NCBI GenBank assembly: GCA_051362555.1
Contig: CM120640.1
Location: 25,468,225-25,532,224, forward strand
DNA from: Lingula anatina
Taxonomy: Eukaryota > Animalia > Brachiopoda
DNA length: 64,000 bases
Reading direction: 5' to 3'
This document shows, one piece after another, positions 6,549 through 62,617 of this stretch; positions within the stretch are counted from its first letter, which is position 1, and each line of letters starts with the position of its first letter. The notes below the pieces were generated by a model that was not told where the DNA came from, did not search any database, and saw only the letters and a program-made list of their open reading frames with translations. Both the position numbers and the translations under genes were made by a program.

Positions 6549-7301
<753 letters not shown>

Positions 7302-26496: not shown

Positions 26497-27243
<747 letters not shown>

Positions 27244-29552: not shown

Positions 29553-29952
29553 AAGGATAAAAATATAAAAACAAATCTTTAGGCAAGCTGTAAATTTGCA
29601 CTGACTCAGGCACATTATTTCGTCCCAGTAACAAATCAACAAAATACAAAGTAGAAATCTAGGGTCAATTGCATACCAAAGGTCGATGGTAAAACCACTA
29701 TGAATTGGGACTTGCTTAATAGATATTTTCTTTTCCTCAATTTCAGTTTTGATACACTTAAAAAGATCGGCTTAAGGTAAGAAAACACATCGTGTGTATT
29801 ATTATTGTTTTAATCCAACACCTGTTCCGCCATTACCTCTGGAGCAGAAGTAATATTTTCGCACTCCCCGGGGCCGGGGGATCCATTACTACCCCCTAAG
29901 GATTGGTGGAGCGTGAGAAATTGATATGAGAATTTACCATCTACAGTGATCT

Positions 29953-31693
29953 AAATTCTATAAACTAATTAAGTGCATGTATAATAACACCAGACTAGGT
30001 GTATCTATAGGTGAACAGTATACAACCCCATTCAAGTCAAGAATAGGCATCCGGCAAGGGGACAATTTGAGTCCAATACTCTTTAACATATTTATCGATG
30101 ACCTAAAACATGATCTCAGCGAATGCTATAACCCAGGAAATGTTGCTGGACTGAGTCATATCCTCTATGCTGATGATCTTATCCTCCTATCAACATCAAA
30201 AGACGGTCTACAGCACTTGCTGCATAAACTCGAAAGGTACTGCTTAAAATGGAAATTACATGTAAATGAAAACAAATCAAAAGTTGTTGTCTTCAACAAG
30301 TCTGGTAAAGTGGATAAAAATACAAAGTTCTTTATAAATGCCAACCCGATCGAGACTGTGAAAGAATACACTTACCTTGGTATCACCTTTGCTAACACTG
30401 GGTCAATGAAAAAAGCAATAGTAAATCTAAAATTAAAAGCAATGAAAGCAATGTTCTCATTGAAAGGTGCACTTTCGTCACAAAACTTATCCTCACCTCT
30501 CCTATATTTAAAACTGTTTGACAAAGTGGTAAGGCCAATACTCCTCTATGGCTGTGAAGTTTGGGCCCAAGAAATATTCAAAGAAAAGAAGATGACCCTG
30601 AACAAAATTAACCAAATGCCTTTTGAGCAAGCACATTTGAGAATGTGCAAATGGGCACTGGGTTTGAGTAAACACGCCAGCAACAATGCCAGTCGCGCAG
30701 AGCTCGGTCGTTATCCTTTATATTCTAATATTGTTAAACAGGTACAACGATACTGCCAAAGATTTGGAAATCTACCAAATAACAGAATAGTTAAACTCAC
30801 CCATGATGCAGAACTGACAATAGGGGAAAAAGGTTGGCCAGGAGCGATTAATACTATGTTAACGACTTGGAATCTTCACAGTGAAAATGTCCCAGGGGTT
30901 CAGCAAATCCAAACACATTGCAATACTGAGGAAAAAATCAATGCTAAAATTGAAAAAATGTTCTGGGAAGAGTTAACTGATCCTCAAAGCACCAAGTTAA
31001 AAACTTATAGTCTGATAAAAAAGTCCTACAAAATTGAAAAGTACCTGCTAACTAATGCCCCTCAGTCATTAAAAAGGGAAGTGGCTAAAATTAGAGTCAG
31101 TGATCATATTCTGGAAATGGAAAGAGGACGCTACACCAGACCTAAAACACCACGCGAGGAACGATTCTGTCCCCACTGTCCTGCAATCGAGGACGAAGTG
31201 CACTTCCTACTAGAATGTAGACACCATGTAAAAGAGAGGGAGGGCATGTTAAAACAATTCCCTAAATGTGACATGCATCACCTAGCAAGCAGTGACGAGA
31301 AGGTTAAAATCATACTAAGCCCAGAAAATGAGAAAGAATTGTACGCTGTTGGTAAATACATTCAGAGGGCAATTTCCAAAAGAAATGAGCATCTGCCACA
31401 CTGAAGTAGCCTCATCCTGCTATATATTATATGAACCATAAGTATGGCACATTAGATACATATAGCTATAAGCCTATCAAAGAAAATGTGTGTTCCCTCA
31501 GTGTATTGAACTATTTACAATTGTAATAAGTATTTTAAACAACGTATACACTGTAATTAATAATCTTAAACACTGTATTAGTAGTAATCCATAGTGATGT
31601 ATAACTTTTATTTATTTATATATTTGTAGTATAGAGGGCTAACAAATGTAACTGCCACATTTAATGCTCGAATAAATTATTATTATTATTATT
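29953..31693 (+). mobile_element. 5'-truncated non-LTR retrotransposon (RTEX/L2-like LINE), antisense inside the NK1-A intron
   Basis: Uninterrupted frame from about 29953 (KFYKLIKCMY) to 31404. RT motifs GIRQGDNLSPILFNIF, LYADD and YTYLG; also RPILLYGCEVW, RAELGRYPL and a C-terminal CPHC..EDEVHFLLEC zinc finger. The 3' UTR ends in AATAAA (31671) plus a (TTA)n tail. Clade assignment is by motif recall. Confidence 0.92.
29977..31404 (+). CDS. LINE ORF2 fragment: reverse transcriptase C-terminal half plus zinc finger
   Basis: 475-aa ORF with the YADD catalytic motif. It lacks the endonuclease and the N-terminal RT, so it is non-autonomous. Confidence 0.85.
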   Translation: MYNNTRLGVSIGEQYTTPFKSRIGIRQGDNLSPILFNIFIDDLKHDLSECYNPGNVAGLSHILYADDLILLSTSKDGLQHLLHKLERYCLKWKLHVNENKSKVVVFNKSGKVDKNTKFFINANPIETVKEYTYLGITFANTGSMKKAIVNLKLKAMKAMFSLKGALSSQNLSSPLLYLKLFDKVVRPILLYGCEVWAQEIFKEKKMTLNKINQMPFEQAHLRMCKWALGLSKHASNNASRAELGRYPLYSNIVKQVQRYCQRFGNLPNNRIVKLTHDAELTIGEKGWPGAINTMLTTWNLHSENVPGVQQIQTHCNTEEKINAKIEKMFWEELTDPQSTKLKTYSLIKKSYKIEKYLLTNAPQSLKREVAKIRVSDHILEMERGRYTRPKTPREERFCPHCPAIEDEVHFLLECRHHVKEREGMLKQFPKCDMHHLASSDEKVKIILSPENEKELYAVGKYIQRAISKRNEHLPH

Positions 31694-39645: not shown

Positions 39646-40308
<663 letters not shown>

Positions 40309-55176: not shown

Positions 55177-55487
55177 TACCATATAAGTTTAACTTTATAA
55201 TCATAAACTCACTAAGACGTAGTATTTTTACTTGAACCATACGTAGATCGGTCAGTACTGTAATAAGATTTGCCTAGGAAGAATTGATCATTTCATTTTA
55301 CTATGATGCGTTTATGGGTTCTTAACAATGTCAAATATTGGCACAATTCAAAGCAATAAGTGTTATACCTGCATATTAAAAGAGAACTTTTAAAATATAA
55401 TAAACATGTAAATGAGATAAAAAGCACAACTCTGGAGTATAGAATCCATCATACAGTTTGTATACCGTAAGGGTCCAACGATGCCAG

Positions 55488-55565
55488 CCAGTGTTAGACT
55501 CACTTCATCAGCTGTACACCTGGAATTTTAGTGTACAGCATCATTACAGAAATCCCACAGACTGG
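55488..55565 (-). promoter_or_regulatory. Eukaryotic SECIS element (type I-like) in the radical SAM 3' UTR
   Basis: Minus strand reads ccagtctgtgGGATTTctgta-ATGAT-GCTGTACACT-AAAATTCCA-GGTGTACAGC-TGAT-gaagtGAGTCTaacactgg. It has the AUGAN/NGAN core, a perfect 9-bp helix II plus a U-G pair, an apical loop starting AAAA, helix I GGAUUU/GAGUCU and an outer CCAGU/ACUGG pair. Confidence 0.9.
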
Positions 55566-55810
55566 TATCAGAACCTATGTTCTCAGTCTCAAAGGAGAAC
55601 AAAGCCAGCAGCCTAGCATCTGCATTGAATACCTGCAAGTTTCCGCCCATCATGTCCGTGTCCTCTGACAGTGTAATTGCAATGTCATTTCTAATGAATA
55701 TGAGGTTTCCCCCTAGAGCACACATGAGTGCGCTGCAAAATTCTGGAAAATTGTGACTCTTTTGCTTTGCTTGAGCAGAATCGTTGGCTTGCAGTAATCT
55801 GGTGCAGATA

Positions 55811-55962
55811 TTAGACTGTTGTTCCCTGTCAGCTGGACCCCATCCCTGCTGAGCACCCATAACAGTGATTGTCAAACCAGATTCTGGAGCCTTTTAGTTC
55901 ACCGGTGGAATGGATGTCCCACACTGTTAGTGGAGTCGTTTTTCCGACTATTGGTTCTTTTT
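55811..55962 (-). CDS. arsS: Terminal Sec-containing exon of the radical SAM gene (absent from the ORF track)
   Basis: After aaaaCAG the frame reads (E)KEPIVGKTTPLTVWDIHSTGELKGSRIWFDNHCYGCSAGMGSS-TGA(55831-55829)-QGTTV-TAA(55813-55811). Confidence 0.88.
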
Positions 55963-58747
55963 CTGTTTTAAATTTAAAAATAAATTAATCACAGTTATTG
56001 TGCTGTATTGGCACATTTTTCTAAAATTATAATATTTCATACATTCCTAATGTTATAAAATGAAAAAAAAAAGAATGTATATATGTAAAGAAAAAAAATC
56101 TCATTTAATGTCAATTTTGGCAGAACTGACCTTTTGGCACAATTCCTAATTCAAGTTGCTGGTTGAAGTCACAGTCAAACAAATCTCCATTCCACTTGAC
56201 ATTCAGTGTATTTCTACACATTAAGTTGTCTATAGTTGCAATGTTGTAGTTCCTCACCAGCAAATCCATGTACTCTTGAAGCTCATTTCTGAAAAGTGAC
56301 ACTACCATATGACACCTGTGCAATAACAGAAAGATTGGGTTATCCCACACCTTATCATCTACAACAGACATATACATATATTTTAGCATCTTGTCTCTTT
56401 GACTTGAAAAAAAAACTACTCATAGATAATAATGCTTGCATAAAGCTAGAAACTATTTGTTTAACTTTCAAAATATCCATCCAATTAAATTAATGTATTG
56501 TTGGTATTCTTGGACTTAATAAATCTTATCAATTGGATGGGTACTCTATCTATCCTGGACAGTTCACCTTCTGTATAGGAAGTCCACAAATCTCTTGATT
56601 GGCATATTTGTCATTGTAAAGAGACTGGTGAATTCTATACCAAATGTATCCAACAATTCCTCCCTATATTTTTCTTCCAATTCAGACTGCTTTGGTGGAA
56701 GGAAAGCACCTGCACAAAAATAAGCCCTTTTTGTTAAAGGTACATGCGAACCAAGAATCGGTGAAGGATGGATTCCCACTTACACATGCAAACCACTTCT
56801 ACTAGTTTCTTATACGACTAAAATGAATTCGACATGCCAAAAGAAAAACTGAATAGATCACTCGATCAACAATAAAAGAGCTTTAAACTGCTCCTTCCTT
56901 TAAATTTTTGGTTGGAAATTTAACCGTCTTTCGTGACCTACTTTTCTGCCCCATTGACATACAGCATAGAATGCCAGCAGAAAAATCCATTCAAACATCA
57001 TTTTCCGGTAAAATTAAACAATGCCTTTTGGTAATTCCCTTAGTTATACTACTTGAAACTATATGCTGGCATTTGGTTGTTTTTTGTGACAATAATTCAG
57101 TTTAAAACAAAAGGTGCTGTATGTGGCAACAAAATGGTACATTATTCAAAATAAACGTAGCAAAATTACAAGTGAAATAAACTATGATGTCAGTGACAAT
57201 GTATAAGACTAATACAAACATACTATTACCAATACATGCAAAATTACCAATTTGAAAACACCGATTTTAATTTCAGTTTTAAAAACAGAAGTACAATGTT
57301 GTACCAACCTAGAGGATTATACACAAGGTCTAGCTTCAAATTGCTGCCTGGCTTGCCAAACCCCACCTGGTTCAGTGTCAGTAAAGCCTGGATACTTCTG
57401 TCAAACACACCTTTGCCTCTCTGCATGTTCACATTCTTGGCTGAATAACAGGGCAGGGAAGCAATGATGTGGACACCATTCTCTGCAAGAAACTCTGGCA
57501 AATCTTCTTGACCTATAGGAGAGAGATGAAAAAATGATAAAGCTTAGACTGAAAATAATGCTACCATCAATGCTTGTGATATCATAATCTACACTAAAAC
57601 AAACTTAATGCACTATGATCAACAATATTTATTCTCTATTGTCTTGTATGCTATTCACCATCCTAGTGTTATTGGACAGGTGTGATGTTCTACAGGGTGA
57701 CAGGCACCAAGGATAATTTTGATTAATATGAAGTATTTCCTTAATCTAGTTGACATTCCTTCAATGCACCATAATTTTTGAAAAACTGAGTAAAAGATGT
57801 TTGTGCACAAGAATTATCCCCACTGTAGTCAATAAAGAAGAATTATTTAGGAGGAGAGGGGCTGTGGCAATAAAAGGTTTCTCTCTCAGTCCACCAGTTT
57901 CGTGTTTGTTGACAGAAACAGAATATTTGGATCCCCATACAGTTCCCAAGGATGACAATGTGTAAAGTATTGCATGGGAAATGAAAACACAATCACGGTA
58001 CTGCAGTATACCACTGAATTACCTGGTTCCTGGAGGACTGTTAAGTTACACCTGTCAATGATCTCCCTGTCCAGTTTCCTCACACCTTTAACTAAGTGTC
58101 GGAACTCACTACACAACTCTGGTGCACCTCCTAACAGAAAAAAATGTTTAACTGACATGTAGTAATCAAAAACAATCAGGTTTTCTGTTTATGTCTCTGG
58201 AGCACTTCTAATGAAAAAAGAGCTAGATTTCAACACAATGACCTACAGGTAGAAAAAAAATGTAAGAATCTTTAAACTGACTTCCAAGTTAAAAATCTGG
58301 TGAAATTTCTGGTCTTGTGCAAAACATCAACCTTGCCATAAGATATGACCTGTAATTATGGTGTAACCATATTCAGCAACGCTTCTGAATCAGTTATATT
58401 CAACTTCTGATTCTCATACCTGTTATATCCACAGTGGTGACTGATGGGGAATGAGCCATGATATCCAAGCACTTGTCAGCTACTTCTCTGGTCATCATTT
58501 CCTTTCTTTTGGGAGACGATTCTACATGACAGTGGTTGCAGGCTTGGTTACAGTAGATTCCTATGTTCAACTGCATGATCTCTATTTCATCTTTCTTTAA
58601 ATCTCTTTCCACTTCAGTATCTACAAAGAGAATGCACATGTTTGCACATAGGATCATAATTTTAATCTTAAAAGAACAGATGAGATGTAATCATACATGT
58701 ATGTAGCAGTTTTAAGAAAATATTGAAACTGTAGACTGTAAATTTTG

Positions 58748-58789
<42 letters not shown>

Positions 58790-59466
58790 AACCCAGAACT
58801 CCATTACTGAGCTGTTGTTCCTGCCAGTACTCCAAAAAGCCAGGCACACCAAGCTGATCCAAAGCCCTTTGTCGTTTCTTCCTTTCATCCCTTGTCAGCT
58901 TTGCTTGGCCAAATTTCTTTAATTGTTCTGCTGTGATCTGGAACTGCTTGTCCTCCTGCATTTCCTTTAGAGTCTCTGGTATCAGAGAACCCTGGAAAGA
59001 AAAAAAATCACTTAACAAATACTGACAGATCTAAAATAAATGTTGGTCACAGCTTTTATTCCGTCAGATAAACTGGTACACACGCCCCCTCTTGGCATTA
59101 AGTAAAATACAGAAAAGTTGGTGATTATACTAGTACTGGTACGTTGGCAACAAGAAGAAAAAAAATCTGATTGCATTTAGCGAGAGTCCCCAGGGAGTTG
59201 GATCGCTATTTTCATTGGGAATTAACCCTATGACTGTTACTGTTCATTATGCACAGTACCTGCGTTCTTTCCTTCAAGCCTTGTAATCCTGTCCATGACG
59301 GGGGAGGACGATCTGGTCTCTTCAGCTTGTGTTGGTGAATGTTTACGTCAGTATTGTAATCTGGTAATTCTGGGGCCACATATTGCGGTTTGCCAACTTT
59401 ACTTGACAATGTTCTAAACAGGGACGCAGCTGGCATCAAGTGCCTTCGGTCCCTTATCCTGAACAT
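55811..59466 (-). CDS. arsS: ArsS-like radical SAM / Cys-rich (DUF3641-type) selenoprotein, 8 coding exons, about 456 aa, Sec at residue about 451
   Basis: Exons (minus): 59466-59260, 58991-58793, 58620-58420, 58130-58023, 57512-57309, 56709-56568, 56288-56131, 55962-55811. All introns are GT-AG with compatible phases; total 1371 nt. Motifs: QLNIGIYCNQACNHCHVESSP (CxxxCxxC), VDITGGAPEL, IIDRCNLTVL, IASLPCY..NV..QRG.GVF, LVYNPLGAFLPP, TNMPIKRF, LMCRNTL..W.G.LFDCDFNQQL and HCYGCSAGMGSS[TGA]QG. These match the ArsS/rSAM-SeCys family as recalled. The start ATG and the exon-2 donor are the least certain points. Confidence 0.9.
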
Positions 59467-59660: not shown

Positions 59661-59965
59661 TGCCAACCGCAACCATAATTAGAGAGTTTTTGCAAACCTA
59701 GATTTACCAAAACACCTTCAATTTTCGTATCTGTAAGTGTCATAGTGTAACTGCCGAGACATTTACAATTTACCGATTTTGAACAAAGTTGGCATTTATT
59801 ACGGTCTTATTATAGGCCTACTAAAATTTAGGTCTACATATTGGCAGATAAATAAGTAGGTGAAGGTTAATCTAACACTAACGCCTTTCCAGACCAGTCA
59901 AAATGTATAACATAATAAGGTTATAAATTAGAATATAATAAAATTATTTTGTCCATTAGCGACAC

Positions 59966-60255
59966 CAGTGGCGGATTTAGAGGGGAGTGCTGATCCCCCC
60001 CCCCCTTTCGCGGTTTTTGAAAAAAAAAAAAAAAAACTTAGGCCTATATTCCCCTCTTAAAATGGGAAGTTTGACAAGCTGAATCATAGTTCTAAATCAC
60101 ACCAAATAGCACTGTTTGCCCTCCAAAACACCAAATATTTTCGGGGCCCTTGAGTGAGCCCCCCAACCCCACGCCAAGGGAGGGGGGGGGGCGAGGGTCG
60201 GACCCCCCTTCAGATAGTCCTGATAGTTGTGAACGGGGGCCTGGATCCGCCCCTG
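59966..60255. mobile_element. MITE (hAT-like termini), 290 bp, with 6-bp TSD
   Basis: Termini CAGTGGCGGATTTAG and CTGGATCCGCCCCTG form an imperfect TIR; the direct repeat CGACAC flanks it at 59960-59965 and 60256-60261. Confidence 0.85.
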
Positions 60256-60649: not shown

Positions 60650-61701
60650 TTCAGCTTAAGCGGCTTAGATGTCTGGCACGCCTACTGAAGCTGCTAAACG
60701 ATACCATCTCGTGGACATCGCCCCATTTCATATGTATCCAGAACCTGTCTCAAAAGAACAATTTCTCGGAGCGCAATTCTTGCTATAATTTTGGTAATGT
60801 AAAGTGCCTGAATATGGCAAGCCGACTTGGAACATCTAGATAAGCTAAAAGAGTGTTTTTAAAATTGACATGCTGTTTTAGAACATAATTCTGAGATGTG
60901 TTAGTTAGTCTTGAGTCAAAGTAAACCCAAAGGAGCTTGACCCAAGGTTCTGGTTTTACCAATTTTCCATTGAAAGGTAATTGCTCGTTACTATGGTTGT
61001 CTGCTGTTTTGCCAATAAAAATAGCTTGGAATTATTCAGCTTCGCTTCCATATTAGAGGAGAACCAGTTTATAGCATTTTGTGGATCATATTCAAGTTTT
61101 AAAGGTATCGAAGTCTGGGTGTGCGACACTAAAGGTGTTATCGTCTGCGTACTATTGTAGAGGTTACAATTTTCAATGAGTGCAAGATATCATTTATGCA
61201 TATGTTGAACAGCAGAGGACCAATGATGGGACCTTGGGGAACACCTTTTTGTAAATATTCCCAACAGCTTAGTGTATCGCCGACTTTCACTCGCTGTTTT
61301 CTATTACTCAAGTAGCTATGCATTAGATATAAAGCATTTTTTGCCGAGACCATATGCCTCTAATTTGGCAAGTAGTAAAGTGTGTGGTATACTGTCGAGT
61401 GCCTTCGATAGGTCCATTAGAACAGCGCCAACATACTCGTTTTTGTCTAAACTCTGTTTCCAGTCCTCTACCATCTTTATAAAGAGTGTCTGACAGCTAT
61501 GGCCATGCCTAAGAAAAATGAGCTCAGTTGTTCCACCATAACCTTTTCGTATATATATTTTTGAAAAAACTGGGAGCACATTTACTGGCCTATATTTTTC
61601 CTTATCAAAAGTCTCCTTCTTTTTATGGATGGGTGTAACATCAGCCTTTTTTAAATCAGAAAAGAAACAGTTTTCGGTCGTGCCTCGATTGATACATTTG
61701 G
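60650..61701 (-). mobile_element. Decayed CR1/L2-group LINE reverse transcriptase fragment
   Basis: Frameshifted RT motifs: KKADVTPIHKK, YRPVNVLPVFSKI, AVLMDLSKALDSIPH, SYLSNRKQRVKV, GVPQGPIIGPLLFNI, YADD and VKLLWVYFDSRL. Left boundary approximate. Confidence 0.88.

Positions 61702-61703
<2 letters not shown>

Positions 61704-61746
<43 letters not shown>
61704..61746. repeat. (TAA)n microsatellite abutting the truncated end of the CR1-like LINE
   Basis: Seen directly in the sequence. Confidence 0.95.
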
Positions 61747-62617
61747 TTATTAAGATTGCAACCCAGTGGGTTGAAGTTGTACATAGTGTTAAGAAAATTG
61801 ACCAACAATTGAAGCAGCTGCTATTTTTACAATTTTTGGAGAAATGTTGTCATGTCCTGTGCTTTTCTTTGTATTGATTTTAGTTGTACGTAACATGTAG
61901 CCAGACAGTCGTCCACGCCACTGGTTTATTACTCAACTACAACGCTTTTCATACCCGTCTTACATATATGAAACATTTACATATTAAAAAGCTCTTATGT
62001 CGCTTTAAAATATCTACTTGGCCATTTTAATGAGGGCAAAATCTCCGCAGTGTCTCGCCTGGAGTTTTTCTCAACTTAGCAACCGTATCTTACGAGACAC
62101 CAGTTCTGTGACACAGCATTACGCTTTTACATATTTTTTTATGAGACAAGTTAGTAGTTAAAGAAAATTATCCGATGAAGCCTGATAAAAACAGCAAATA
62201 TTGTTTTCAAAACAATTTTATCATAAGTGTTGCTTACTGTGATAGTATGACGTGATTTGAAAAAAAAATCTGCGACAAAAATGTTTTCTTATATTGTGAT
62301 TTTTTTCGAGTTAGTTTTTCTTAGGCCCTCTACTTCAGCTTTCATTAATATATATAACTTCATTTCCAATTTTAGTGTTGCGGCTGAATTAAATCACAAT
62401 ACAATTTACATGATTTAAAGGAAGCAAAAGGAAACTACGTAAATCACTATTTATGACTTTAGATAACTATAACAGGGCAAAGCTAAAATAACAGAATTTG
62501 AAAGTAAAATGAAATATTGGATGTAAATAGATTTCAGGTTGTTGAATTTGTGGAGCAATGTAGATAATCATTTAAAAAAGATTCCAATGAACCTTAGGAC
62601 CAGTCCAGCTTCCGTAA

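Follow-up and report, generated by a model that had tools for sequence, protein, structure and literature searches.

The stretch of DNA analysed in this study, a 64,000-nucleotide window from the brachiopod Lingula anatina (assembly GCA_051362555.1, contig CM120640.1, positions 25,468,225 to 25,532,224), carries on its minus strand a gene of the ArsS family of radical S-adenosylmethionine (SAM) enzymes, in which a UGA codon close to the end of the frame is very probably decoded as selenocysteine (Sec). The gene comprises eight exons, with GT-AG at all introns, and splices to a frame of 1371 nt (Table 1). Its 456 codons include a single internal stop, the TGA of codon 451 (55831-55829), which is followed by Q-G-T-T-V and then TAA (55813-55811). 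This layout agrees with the original prediction, made before this study, of an eight-exon gene with a CxxxCxxC motif whose last exon reads TGA-QGTTV-TAA; the motif lies in exon 3. Exon 5 is identical to RefSeq LOC106169016 of L. anatina, and the spliced protein of the window differs from the RefSeq protein P0001 at 4 of 450 residues.

Expression of the gene is documented by four raw-read runs from three studies, three of the four runs being stranded. Splice joints of introns 3-7 are present in the reads of the four runs; at intron 2, unaligned read ends at 58621-58623 match the 3' end of exon 2, and intron 1, which lies outside the read-covered stretch, has agreement with P0001 as its sole support. 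Read orientation in the three stranded runs fits minus-strand RNA. From the last exon, RNA cover continues unbroken across the TGA and a downstream selenocysteine insertion sequence (SECIS) element to about 55205. The RNA extends ~300 nt past the SECIS rather than ending before 55565, so that the presence of the element in the mRNA, which the original prediction had left to RNA sequencing, is borne out. In run X5, 10 reads diverge right after the TAA stop (55809) and end in a sequence resembling a G+C-rich stretch at ~59960-59990; these reads may represent a transposon insertion allele between the stop and the SECIS. In X7, the run that diverges most, the joint at the acceptor of intron 7 is displaced in 13 reads (55958-55962 / 56130), which would fit an allele with a small indel where exon 8 begins. 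Very deep reads on both strands of intron 5 (56769-57092), with many differences and loose ends, are a dispersed repeat expressed from other loci.

Table 1. Features of the ArsS gene and its surroundings in the window (coordinates of the window)
Feature	Position	Strand	Remarks
Exon 1	59260..59466	-	ATG at 59466; Arg-rich, acid-poor N-terminus, then start of eukaryote-specific extension; agrees with RefSeq P0001
Predicted mitochondrial presequence, ~30 aa	within exon 1, 59260..59466	-	Arg-rich, acid-poor composition
Exon 2	58793..58991	-	Remainder of eukaryote-specific helical N-terminal extension, which bacterial alignment rows lack
Exon 3	58420..58620	-	Radical SAM CxxxCxxC = C159, C163, C166 (58552-58529); TIGR04167 positions 2-60, PF04055; read splice joint
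Exon 4	58023..58130	-	Radical SAM core; TIGR04167 62-96; read joints
Exon 5	57309..57512	-	Radical SAM core, conserved C260; TIGR04167 98-163; read joints
Exon 6	56568..56709	-	DUF3641 (PF12345) begins; profile matches and RNA reads
Exon 7	56131..56288	-	C378-x9-G-x4-C393, first half of predicted twitch-type auxiliary Fe-S site
Exon 8, coding part	55811..55962	-	C440-x2-C443, Sec codon, 5-residue tail, TAA; read joint 55962/56131
In-frame TGA, codon 451, inferred Sec	55829..55831	-	Aligned with Cys of homologues
3' untranslated region	55205..55810	-	3' limit approximate, set by read cover
SECIS element	55502..55553	-	Core 55544-55540; helix II 55539-55530 with 55520-55511; loop 55529-55521; 3' core 55510-55507
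Poly(A)-signal-like hexamers	55232, 55199, 55176		Near end of 3' untranslated region
Three homeodomain exons	6552-7301, 26500-27243, 39649-40308	-	Pfam
RVT_1 retrotransposon fragments	29950-31401; 61319-61849	+; -	Pfam

The Lingula gene is a member of the ArsS family, as originally proposed. P0001 scored 409.8 bits against TIGR04167, for which the equivalog cut-off is 300, over model positions 2-298 of 303; the next family reached 31 bits. Exons 3-8 cover this model consecutively and in model order, and both the radical SAM CxxxCxxC motif and the Cys-rich DUF3641 C-terminus are present in the profile matches and the alignment. C159, C163, C166, C378, C440 and C443 occur in all 47 aligned rows, C393 and C260 in 46 of them. 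The spacings C378-x9-G-x4-C393 and C440-x2-C443 are conserved; the pattern C-x9-15-G-x4-C with further cysteines on one auxiliary cluster is what we take to be the twitch-type motif. A model of the starfish homologue, which has Cys at the Sec position (mean predicted local distance difference test score, pLDDT, 78), matches SPASM/twitch radical SAM enzymes over residues 160-479, with SkfB, SuiB and BlsE among its fold neighbours (Z 17.7-18.2, root mean square deviation 3.5-5.6 Å, 240-254 residues aligned), in a comparison where ligand geometry is not visible. None of the 7 sequence matches in the PDB is an ArsS structure.

Metagenome contigs were searched with a pattern ending before the codon of interest. 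At least 120 loci were obtained; the counts below are for the 120 matches listed and, after de-duplication, for 100 stretches among them (87 TGA and 13 Cys). At the position of codon 451, 107 listed loci carry TGA and 13 carry TGT or TGC; TAA or TAG occurs in none of the 120. In the de-duplicated TGA loci listed, the second residue after the TGA is Gly in 87 of 87, with all four Gly codons in use; Gln and Thr are each present after the TGA in 83, and the tail is five residues long in 72. Variation in the tail is nearly all silent, with an entropy of 1.0-1.9 bits at third codon positions vs 0-1.1 at positions 1 and 2. The frames of the TGA loci end on TAA (46) or TAG (40; one further frame is cut off) and never on TGA, which closes 6 of the 13 Cys loci. 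The nearest proteins of most of these TGA loci are algal or from MMETSP. Two contigs are animal-like: L076, whose best matches are bivalves, has intron 6 at the same position and phase and reads TGA-QGTTV-TAG, and L081 has TGA at the same codon. RefSeq XP_013403753.1 ends at Ser450 (GSS), the truncation that the original prediction had expected of standard annotation.

The SECIS lies on the strand of the gene, in the 3' untranslated region, and is covered by RNA reads. Its AUGAU core starts at 55544, 284 nt 3' of the TGA; helix II has 10 base pairs (9 Watson-Crick and 1 G-U), the 9-nt loop begins with AAAA, and UGAU stands on the 3' side. Folded by itself, helix II has a z of -4.6, and 0 of 200 shuffles were as good. 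A strict SECIS pattern has a background of 12 matches in 128 kb (both strands of the window), or ~0.06 per 600 nt. Applied to the 112 listed loci that extend 150 nt or more downstream (the other 8 were dropped), up to 600 nt being searched, it matched the sense strand in 34 and the antisense strand in 2 of the 99 TGA loci, and none of the 13 Cys loci (27 of 80 vs 0 of 13 after de-duplication). The SECIS of L076 stands 1089 nt downstream of its TGA and scored 19.2 bits with Rfam when searched alone. In the X7 reads (40 of 183 rows), 1 change, in the loop, falls in 55506-55544 vs 11 in 55587-55657, which is only suggestive of conservation of the SECIS relative to its flank. Because TAA and TAG are absent, the tail is conserved at the protein level, the SECIS is enriched in TGA loci and the element lies inside the mRNA, the UGA of codon 451 is very likely decoded as Sec, via the SBP2/eEFSec route. 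The original prediction of a true selenoenzyme had named TAA or TAG in orthologues, or an unconserved tail, as signs to the contrary; the 120 listed loci show neither, and the alternation of TGA with Cys codons, the conserved tail and a transcript running through the SECIS support it.

The animal distribution of the gene is broad. Of a set of 195 proteins, 103 terminate precisely at the Sec position and 65 carry Cys there; a further 26, with partial or alternative ends, are without the motif, and 1 is different. Four named animal entries were excluded (P0011, P0014 and P0091, without the motif, and P0002, a shorter duplicate from B. belcheri). Twenty-one of the 29 full-length proteins from named animals stop at the Sec position, and these come from a brachiopod, an annelid, a nemertean, 10 bivalves, 3 amphioxus, 2 hemichordates, 2 copepods and a calcareous sponge; the 8 Cys forms are those of all 7 echinoderms and Priapulus. 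The same end is seen in thirteen more cluster members from named animals, Magallana gigas and Mytilus among them, two partial members aside, and in every Sec-type animal annotation encountered. In two quick trees, with support from the Shimodaira-Hasegawa-like approximate likelihood ratio test (SH-aLRT) only, the animals form one clade (98 and 97). The first tree approximates animal phylogeny; the second places Sycon with Lingula, and the copepods outside the rest. Since the deep branch order differs between the trees, neither that order nor the source of the animal gene is claimed. A single old origin of animal ArsS is nevertheless supported by the sequences, and the simplest reading of the Cys forms is a Sec-to-Cys change in echinoderms and priapulids. 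Identity to the algal copies is 52-60%. The names in three best-120 lists, most rows of which are nameless, include no vertebrate, tunicate, insect, nematode, cnidarian, gastropod or cephalopod, and this is no evidence of absence.

Two bivalves that we take to live in fresh water, Potamilus (P0124) and Dreissena (P0012), keep the Sec-type gene, so the gene is not confined to the sea. Outside the animals, P0279, whose gene prefix is presumably ichthyosporean, falls beyond the animal clade in the second tree. In both trees, chlorarachniophyte algae are joined, at SH-aLRT 98, by the EukProt entries P0182 and P0187, whose identifiers have a style that we take for that of choanoflagellate transcriptomes. 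Transfers of ArsS among protists are possible. The lone match among viral contigs, at L121:232-306 of IMG/VR, is an ArsS tail of the bacterial type with Cys; it is probably host DNA.

Eukaryotic members carry a conserved N-terminal extension of ~100 residues after an unconserved leader of 25-60 residues. A basic, acid-poor leader is typical of mitochondrial presequences. Presequence-like composition, defined on the first 25 residues as a net charge of at least +2 with at most one acidic residue, was found in 27 of 29 animals, 0 of 15 bacteria and ~8% of internal windows. Import into mitochondria via an N-terminal presequence is therefore predicted as likely, a reading weakened by the crudeness of a composition test that is not a trained predictor. 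In the surroundings of the gene, 5 of the 72 open reading frames (ORFs) of the window have a Pfam match, namely three homeobox exons and two reverse transcriptase fragments. By their motifs, we take one of the homeodomain exons to be NK5/Hmx-like and two to be NK1/Slouch-like with near-identical homeodomains; a piece of the NK homeobox cluster presumably stands beside the ArsS gene.

ArsS adenosylates dimethylarsenite, DMAs(III), to 5'-deoxy-5'-dimethylarsinoyl-adenosine (DDMAA) in a redox-neutral radical reaction, according to the available part of PMC13598754. The best explanation of the whole, reasonably probable, is that the Lingula gene encodes an expressed ArsS-family selenoenzyme of mitochondria that would adenosylate dimethylarsenite toward arsenosugars. 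In such an enzyme, C159, C163 and C166 would almost certainly hold the SAM-cleaving [4Fe-4S] cluster, and C378, C393, C440 and C443 would probably hold a second, twitch-type cluster; with these cysteines assigned, Sec451 is left over on the tail. By analogy with the cyanobacterial enzyme, there is a fair probability that DMAs(III) from the animal's own AS3MT would serve as substrate and be converted to DDMAA, the first arsenosugar step. Lingula anatina, Branchiostoma, Saccoglossus and Crassostrea are listed in the legend of an AS3MT tree in the accessible part of PMC5398495, so the substrate could be animal-made. The most tentative step, for which we judge the chances nearly balanced, is that Sec451 on a mobile tail might bind the arsenic in an As-Se adduct and keep it in place until the 5'-deoxyadenosyl radical attacks. 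DMAs(III), having one exchangeable site, would need one thiol or selenol, and the arsenite-using enzyme ArsL has three tail cysteines. The proposal of Sec451 as an arsenic anchor is made by analogy, because the Cys tail of ArsL binds As(III) and not Fe-S.

Sec451 could instead coordinate the auxiliary Fe-S cluster, or reduce DMAs(V) to DMAs(III), in an enzyme that is otherwise an ArsS selenoenzyme. This alternative alters the anchor step only, so its probability overlaps that of the best explanation; it is possible, although we lean against it. Sec451 stands 8 residues past C443, beside the predicted cluster, and C260, conserved in 46 of 47 rows, could be an arsenic ligand or a redox partner in its place. 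The starfish model leaves the place of Sec451 undefined, since its last block has a pLDDT of 51 and the position of the tail is not fixed; the anchor step thus rests on analogy, which counts against it. On the other hand, four invariant cysteines already fill what we take to be the twitch-type site. In ArsL, moreover, the tail cysteines bind no Fe-S and are needed only for the As(III) step, as stated in the accessible part of bioRxiv 2024.02.01.577332.

A second alternative is a true selenoprotein that acts on another substrate, or on dietary organoarsenicals, in animals and does not start arsenosugar synthesis. This we consider unlikely, yet it draws on several points that weigh against an arsenosugar role: only the cyanobacterial enzyme is characterised in the sources available, from which the activity is carried over by analogy; no assay of an animal ArsS was found in the literature; and no arsenic gene, including arsenic methyltransferase, was found among the 72 window ORFs scanned. 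The eukaryotic form also adds the ~100-residue conserved extension and a presequence, and the named carriers are mostly suspension or deposit feeders on algae. AS3MT is cytosolic, so that the substrate would have to cross into mitochondria, which also speaks for this alternative. Against it stand a score far above the equivalog cut-off across the full model, the retention of all seven cluster cysteines and the tail, the degree of identity to algal copies, and the listing of AS3MT for the four animals named above in the accessible part of PMC5398495.

That the UGA is a plain stop giving the 450-aa protein of RefSeq, or is read as Cys or another residue, with the hairpin there by chance, is very improbable. 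Several observations do pull in this direction. Annotations end at GSS in 103 of the 195 proteins, and the truncated animal records are at the protein level, where the identity of the stop codon is not visible; the codon itself can be seen in only two animal-like loci besides the window, L076 and L081, and L081 has no SECIS within its 278 nt. The Rfam SECIS_1 match (55502-55553) reached 24.3 bits, short of the gathering score of 35 (E 0.056 in a search of all 4227 families), and for this reason a whole-window Rfam scan at the gathering threshold lists no SECIS. Helix I is weak and unformed in an 81-nt fold (z -1.85), so the "textbook SECIS" of the original prediction holds only for the core, helix II and the loop, and not for helix I. 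Furthermore, 65 of the 99 listed TGA loci lack the strict pattern within up to 600 nt, and in a joint Rfam search of 20 pattern-negative TGA loci, no SECIS was listed even at E values as high as 10. A plain stop nevertheless fails to account for the absence of TAA and TAG from the 120 loci listed, the silent-site pattern of the tail, the sense-strand SECIS enrichment confined to TGA loci, and a second animal-like locus with a SECIS. Sec is used by most metazoa, and RefSeq is known to misread a C-terminal Sec as a stop, according to the part of PMC12822975 available.

Contamination from an alga or symbiont, or recent transfer of the gene to Lingula, is of negligible probability. In favour of this reading are the closeness of the algal homologues (52-60%) and the deep branches within the animal clade, which differ between the trees. 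Against it are the seven introns of the gene, a base composition as AT-rich as the window, three adjoining animal homeobox exons, expression in three studies and membership of a supported animal clade that spans sponge to amphioxus.

Organoarsenicals are abundant in shellfish, whose arsenosugars are usually attributed to algae that the animals eat or harbour. The presence of an intact and expressed ArsS gene in Lingula, together with ArsS in bivalves, echinoderms, hemichordates, amphioxus, copepods and a sponge and with AS3MT, makes synthesis by animals directly testable. Since many marine invertebrates share ArsS, it is likely, by analogy with the characterised enzyme, that they make the first arsenosugar building block themselves, besides taking arsenosugars from an algal diet. 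A more far-reaching version, in which a mitochondrial selenoenzyme inherited vertically since ancient times from sponge to amphioxus would form the arsenosugar C-As bond, with Sec directly binding arsenic and selenium controlling the flux, is put forward with reserve, the balance tilting somewhat against it. If true, animals would themselves make part of the arsenosugars, and of the arsenolipids and arsenobetaine regarded as derived from arsenosugars, and selenium status would control arsenosugar flux. A radical SAM enzyme would be added to the animal selenoproteome, and selenium and arsenic metabolism would be joined at one active site. Natural Sec/Cys pairs such as Lingula and starfish, with an identical tail, are available for work on the mechanism, and the 34 named animal proteins that stop at the Sec position point to a systematic annotation error. 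The original prediction did not reach as far as the spread of the gene across animals, its predicted mitochondrial presequence or the link with arsenosugar origin; the main value lies in these, and less in the recoding alone.

The prototype of the family is the cyanobacterial ArsS, reportedly that of Cheng et al. 2021. Xue 2019 is said to have found ArsS widespread in all three domains, and the oyster selenoproteome of Baclaocos 2019 is said to contain a radical SAM entry. No report of an animal radical SAM selenoprotein or animal ArsS was found in the literature, the oyster survey lying outside what could be checked, and on balance we think it slightly the better guess that an animal Sec form has already been listed. 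The words "radical" and "rSAM" are absent from the main text of the metazoan survey PMC3473315, which included B. floridae, and from PMC3753652 and PMC13134290. The available parts of PMC12159101, PMC8744743, PMC12693785, bioRxiv 2025.10.02.680026 and bioRxiv 2022.07.06.499078 do not mention an animal form. The caution originally attached to family-level novelty was justified: NCBIfam TIGR04167 (rSAM_SeCys) is named the arsenosugar biosynthesis radical SAM (seleno)protein, and bacterial Sec-ArsS is already catalogued under that name and in the table seen of PMC13188914. The recoding itself is a variant of a known selenoprotein family. An algal "FeS-oxidoreductase" selenoprotein is listed in the accessible part of PMC7539508, which covers algae and gives no arsenic link; algal homologues of the Lingula protein carry the name "Fe-S oxidoreductase" in UniRef, and most of the TGA loci listed have algal or MMETSP proteins as their nearest, so that this selenoprotein is probably of the ArsS family.

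ArsL, the radical SAM enzyme of arsinothricin synthesis, resembles ArsS in forming a C-As bond and in requiring a C-terminal Cys tail, which binds As(III) and not Fe-S, for the arsenic step; it belongs to a different family, transfers an aminocarboxypropyl group to arsenite, and has an RCCLKC tail with three cysteines, Sec being unmentioned in the part of bioRxiv 2024.02.01.577332 available. The SPASM/twitch enzymes SkfB (6efn), SuiB (5v1s), BlsE (7vob), EpeE (8ai1), BtrN (4m7t) and MoaA share the fold of the starfish model (Z 14.8-18.2) and differ from ArsS in their substrates, at 12-21% identity. We know of no radical SAM enzyme among the selenoproteins TXNRD, SELENOK, SELENOS, SELENOO and SELENOI. 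In these proteins, the folds of which are unrelated to ArsS, a Sec near the C-terminus is misannotated as a stop, as here (PMC12822975, in the part available). Compared with bacterial ArsS, the Lingula form lacks arsM or transferase neighbours, has ~140 extra N-terminal residues including the predicted presequence, and is encoded by a spliced animal nuclear gene with Sec very likely specified through a SECIS in the 3' untranslated region, whereas the bacterial SECIS is in-frame.

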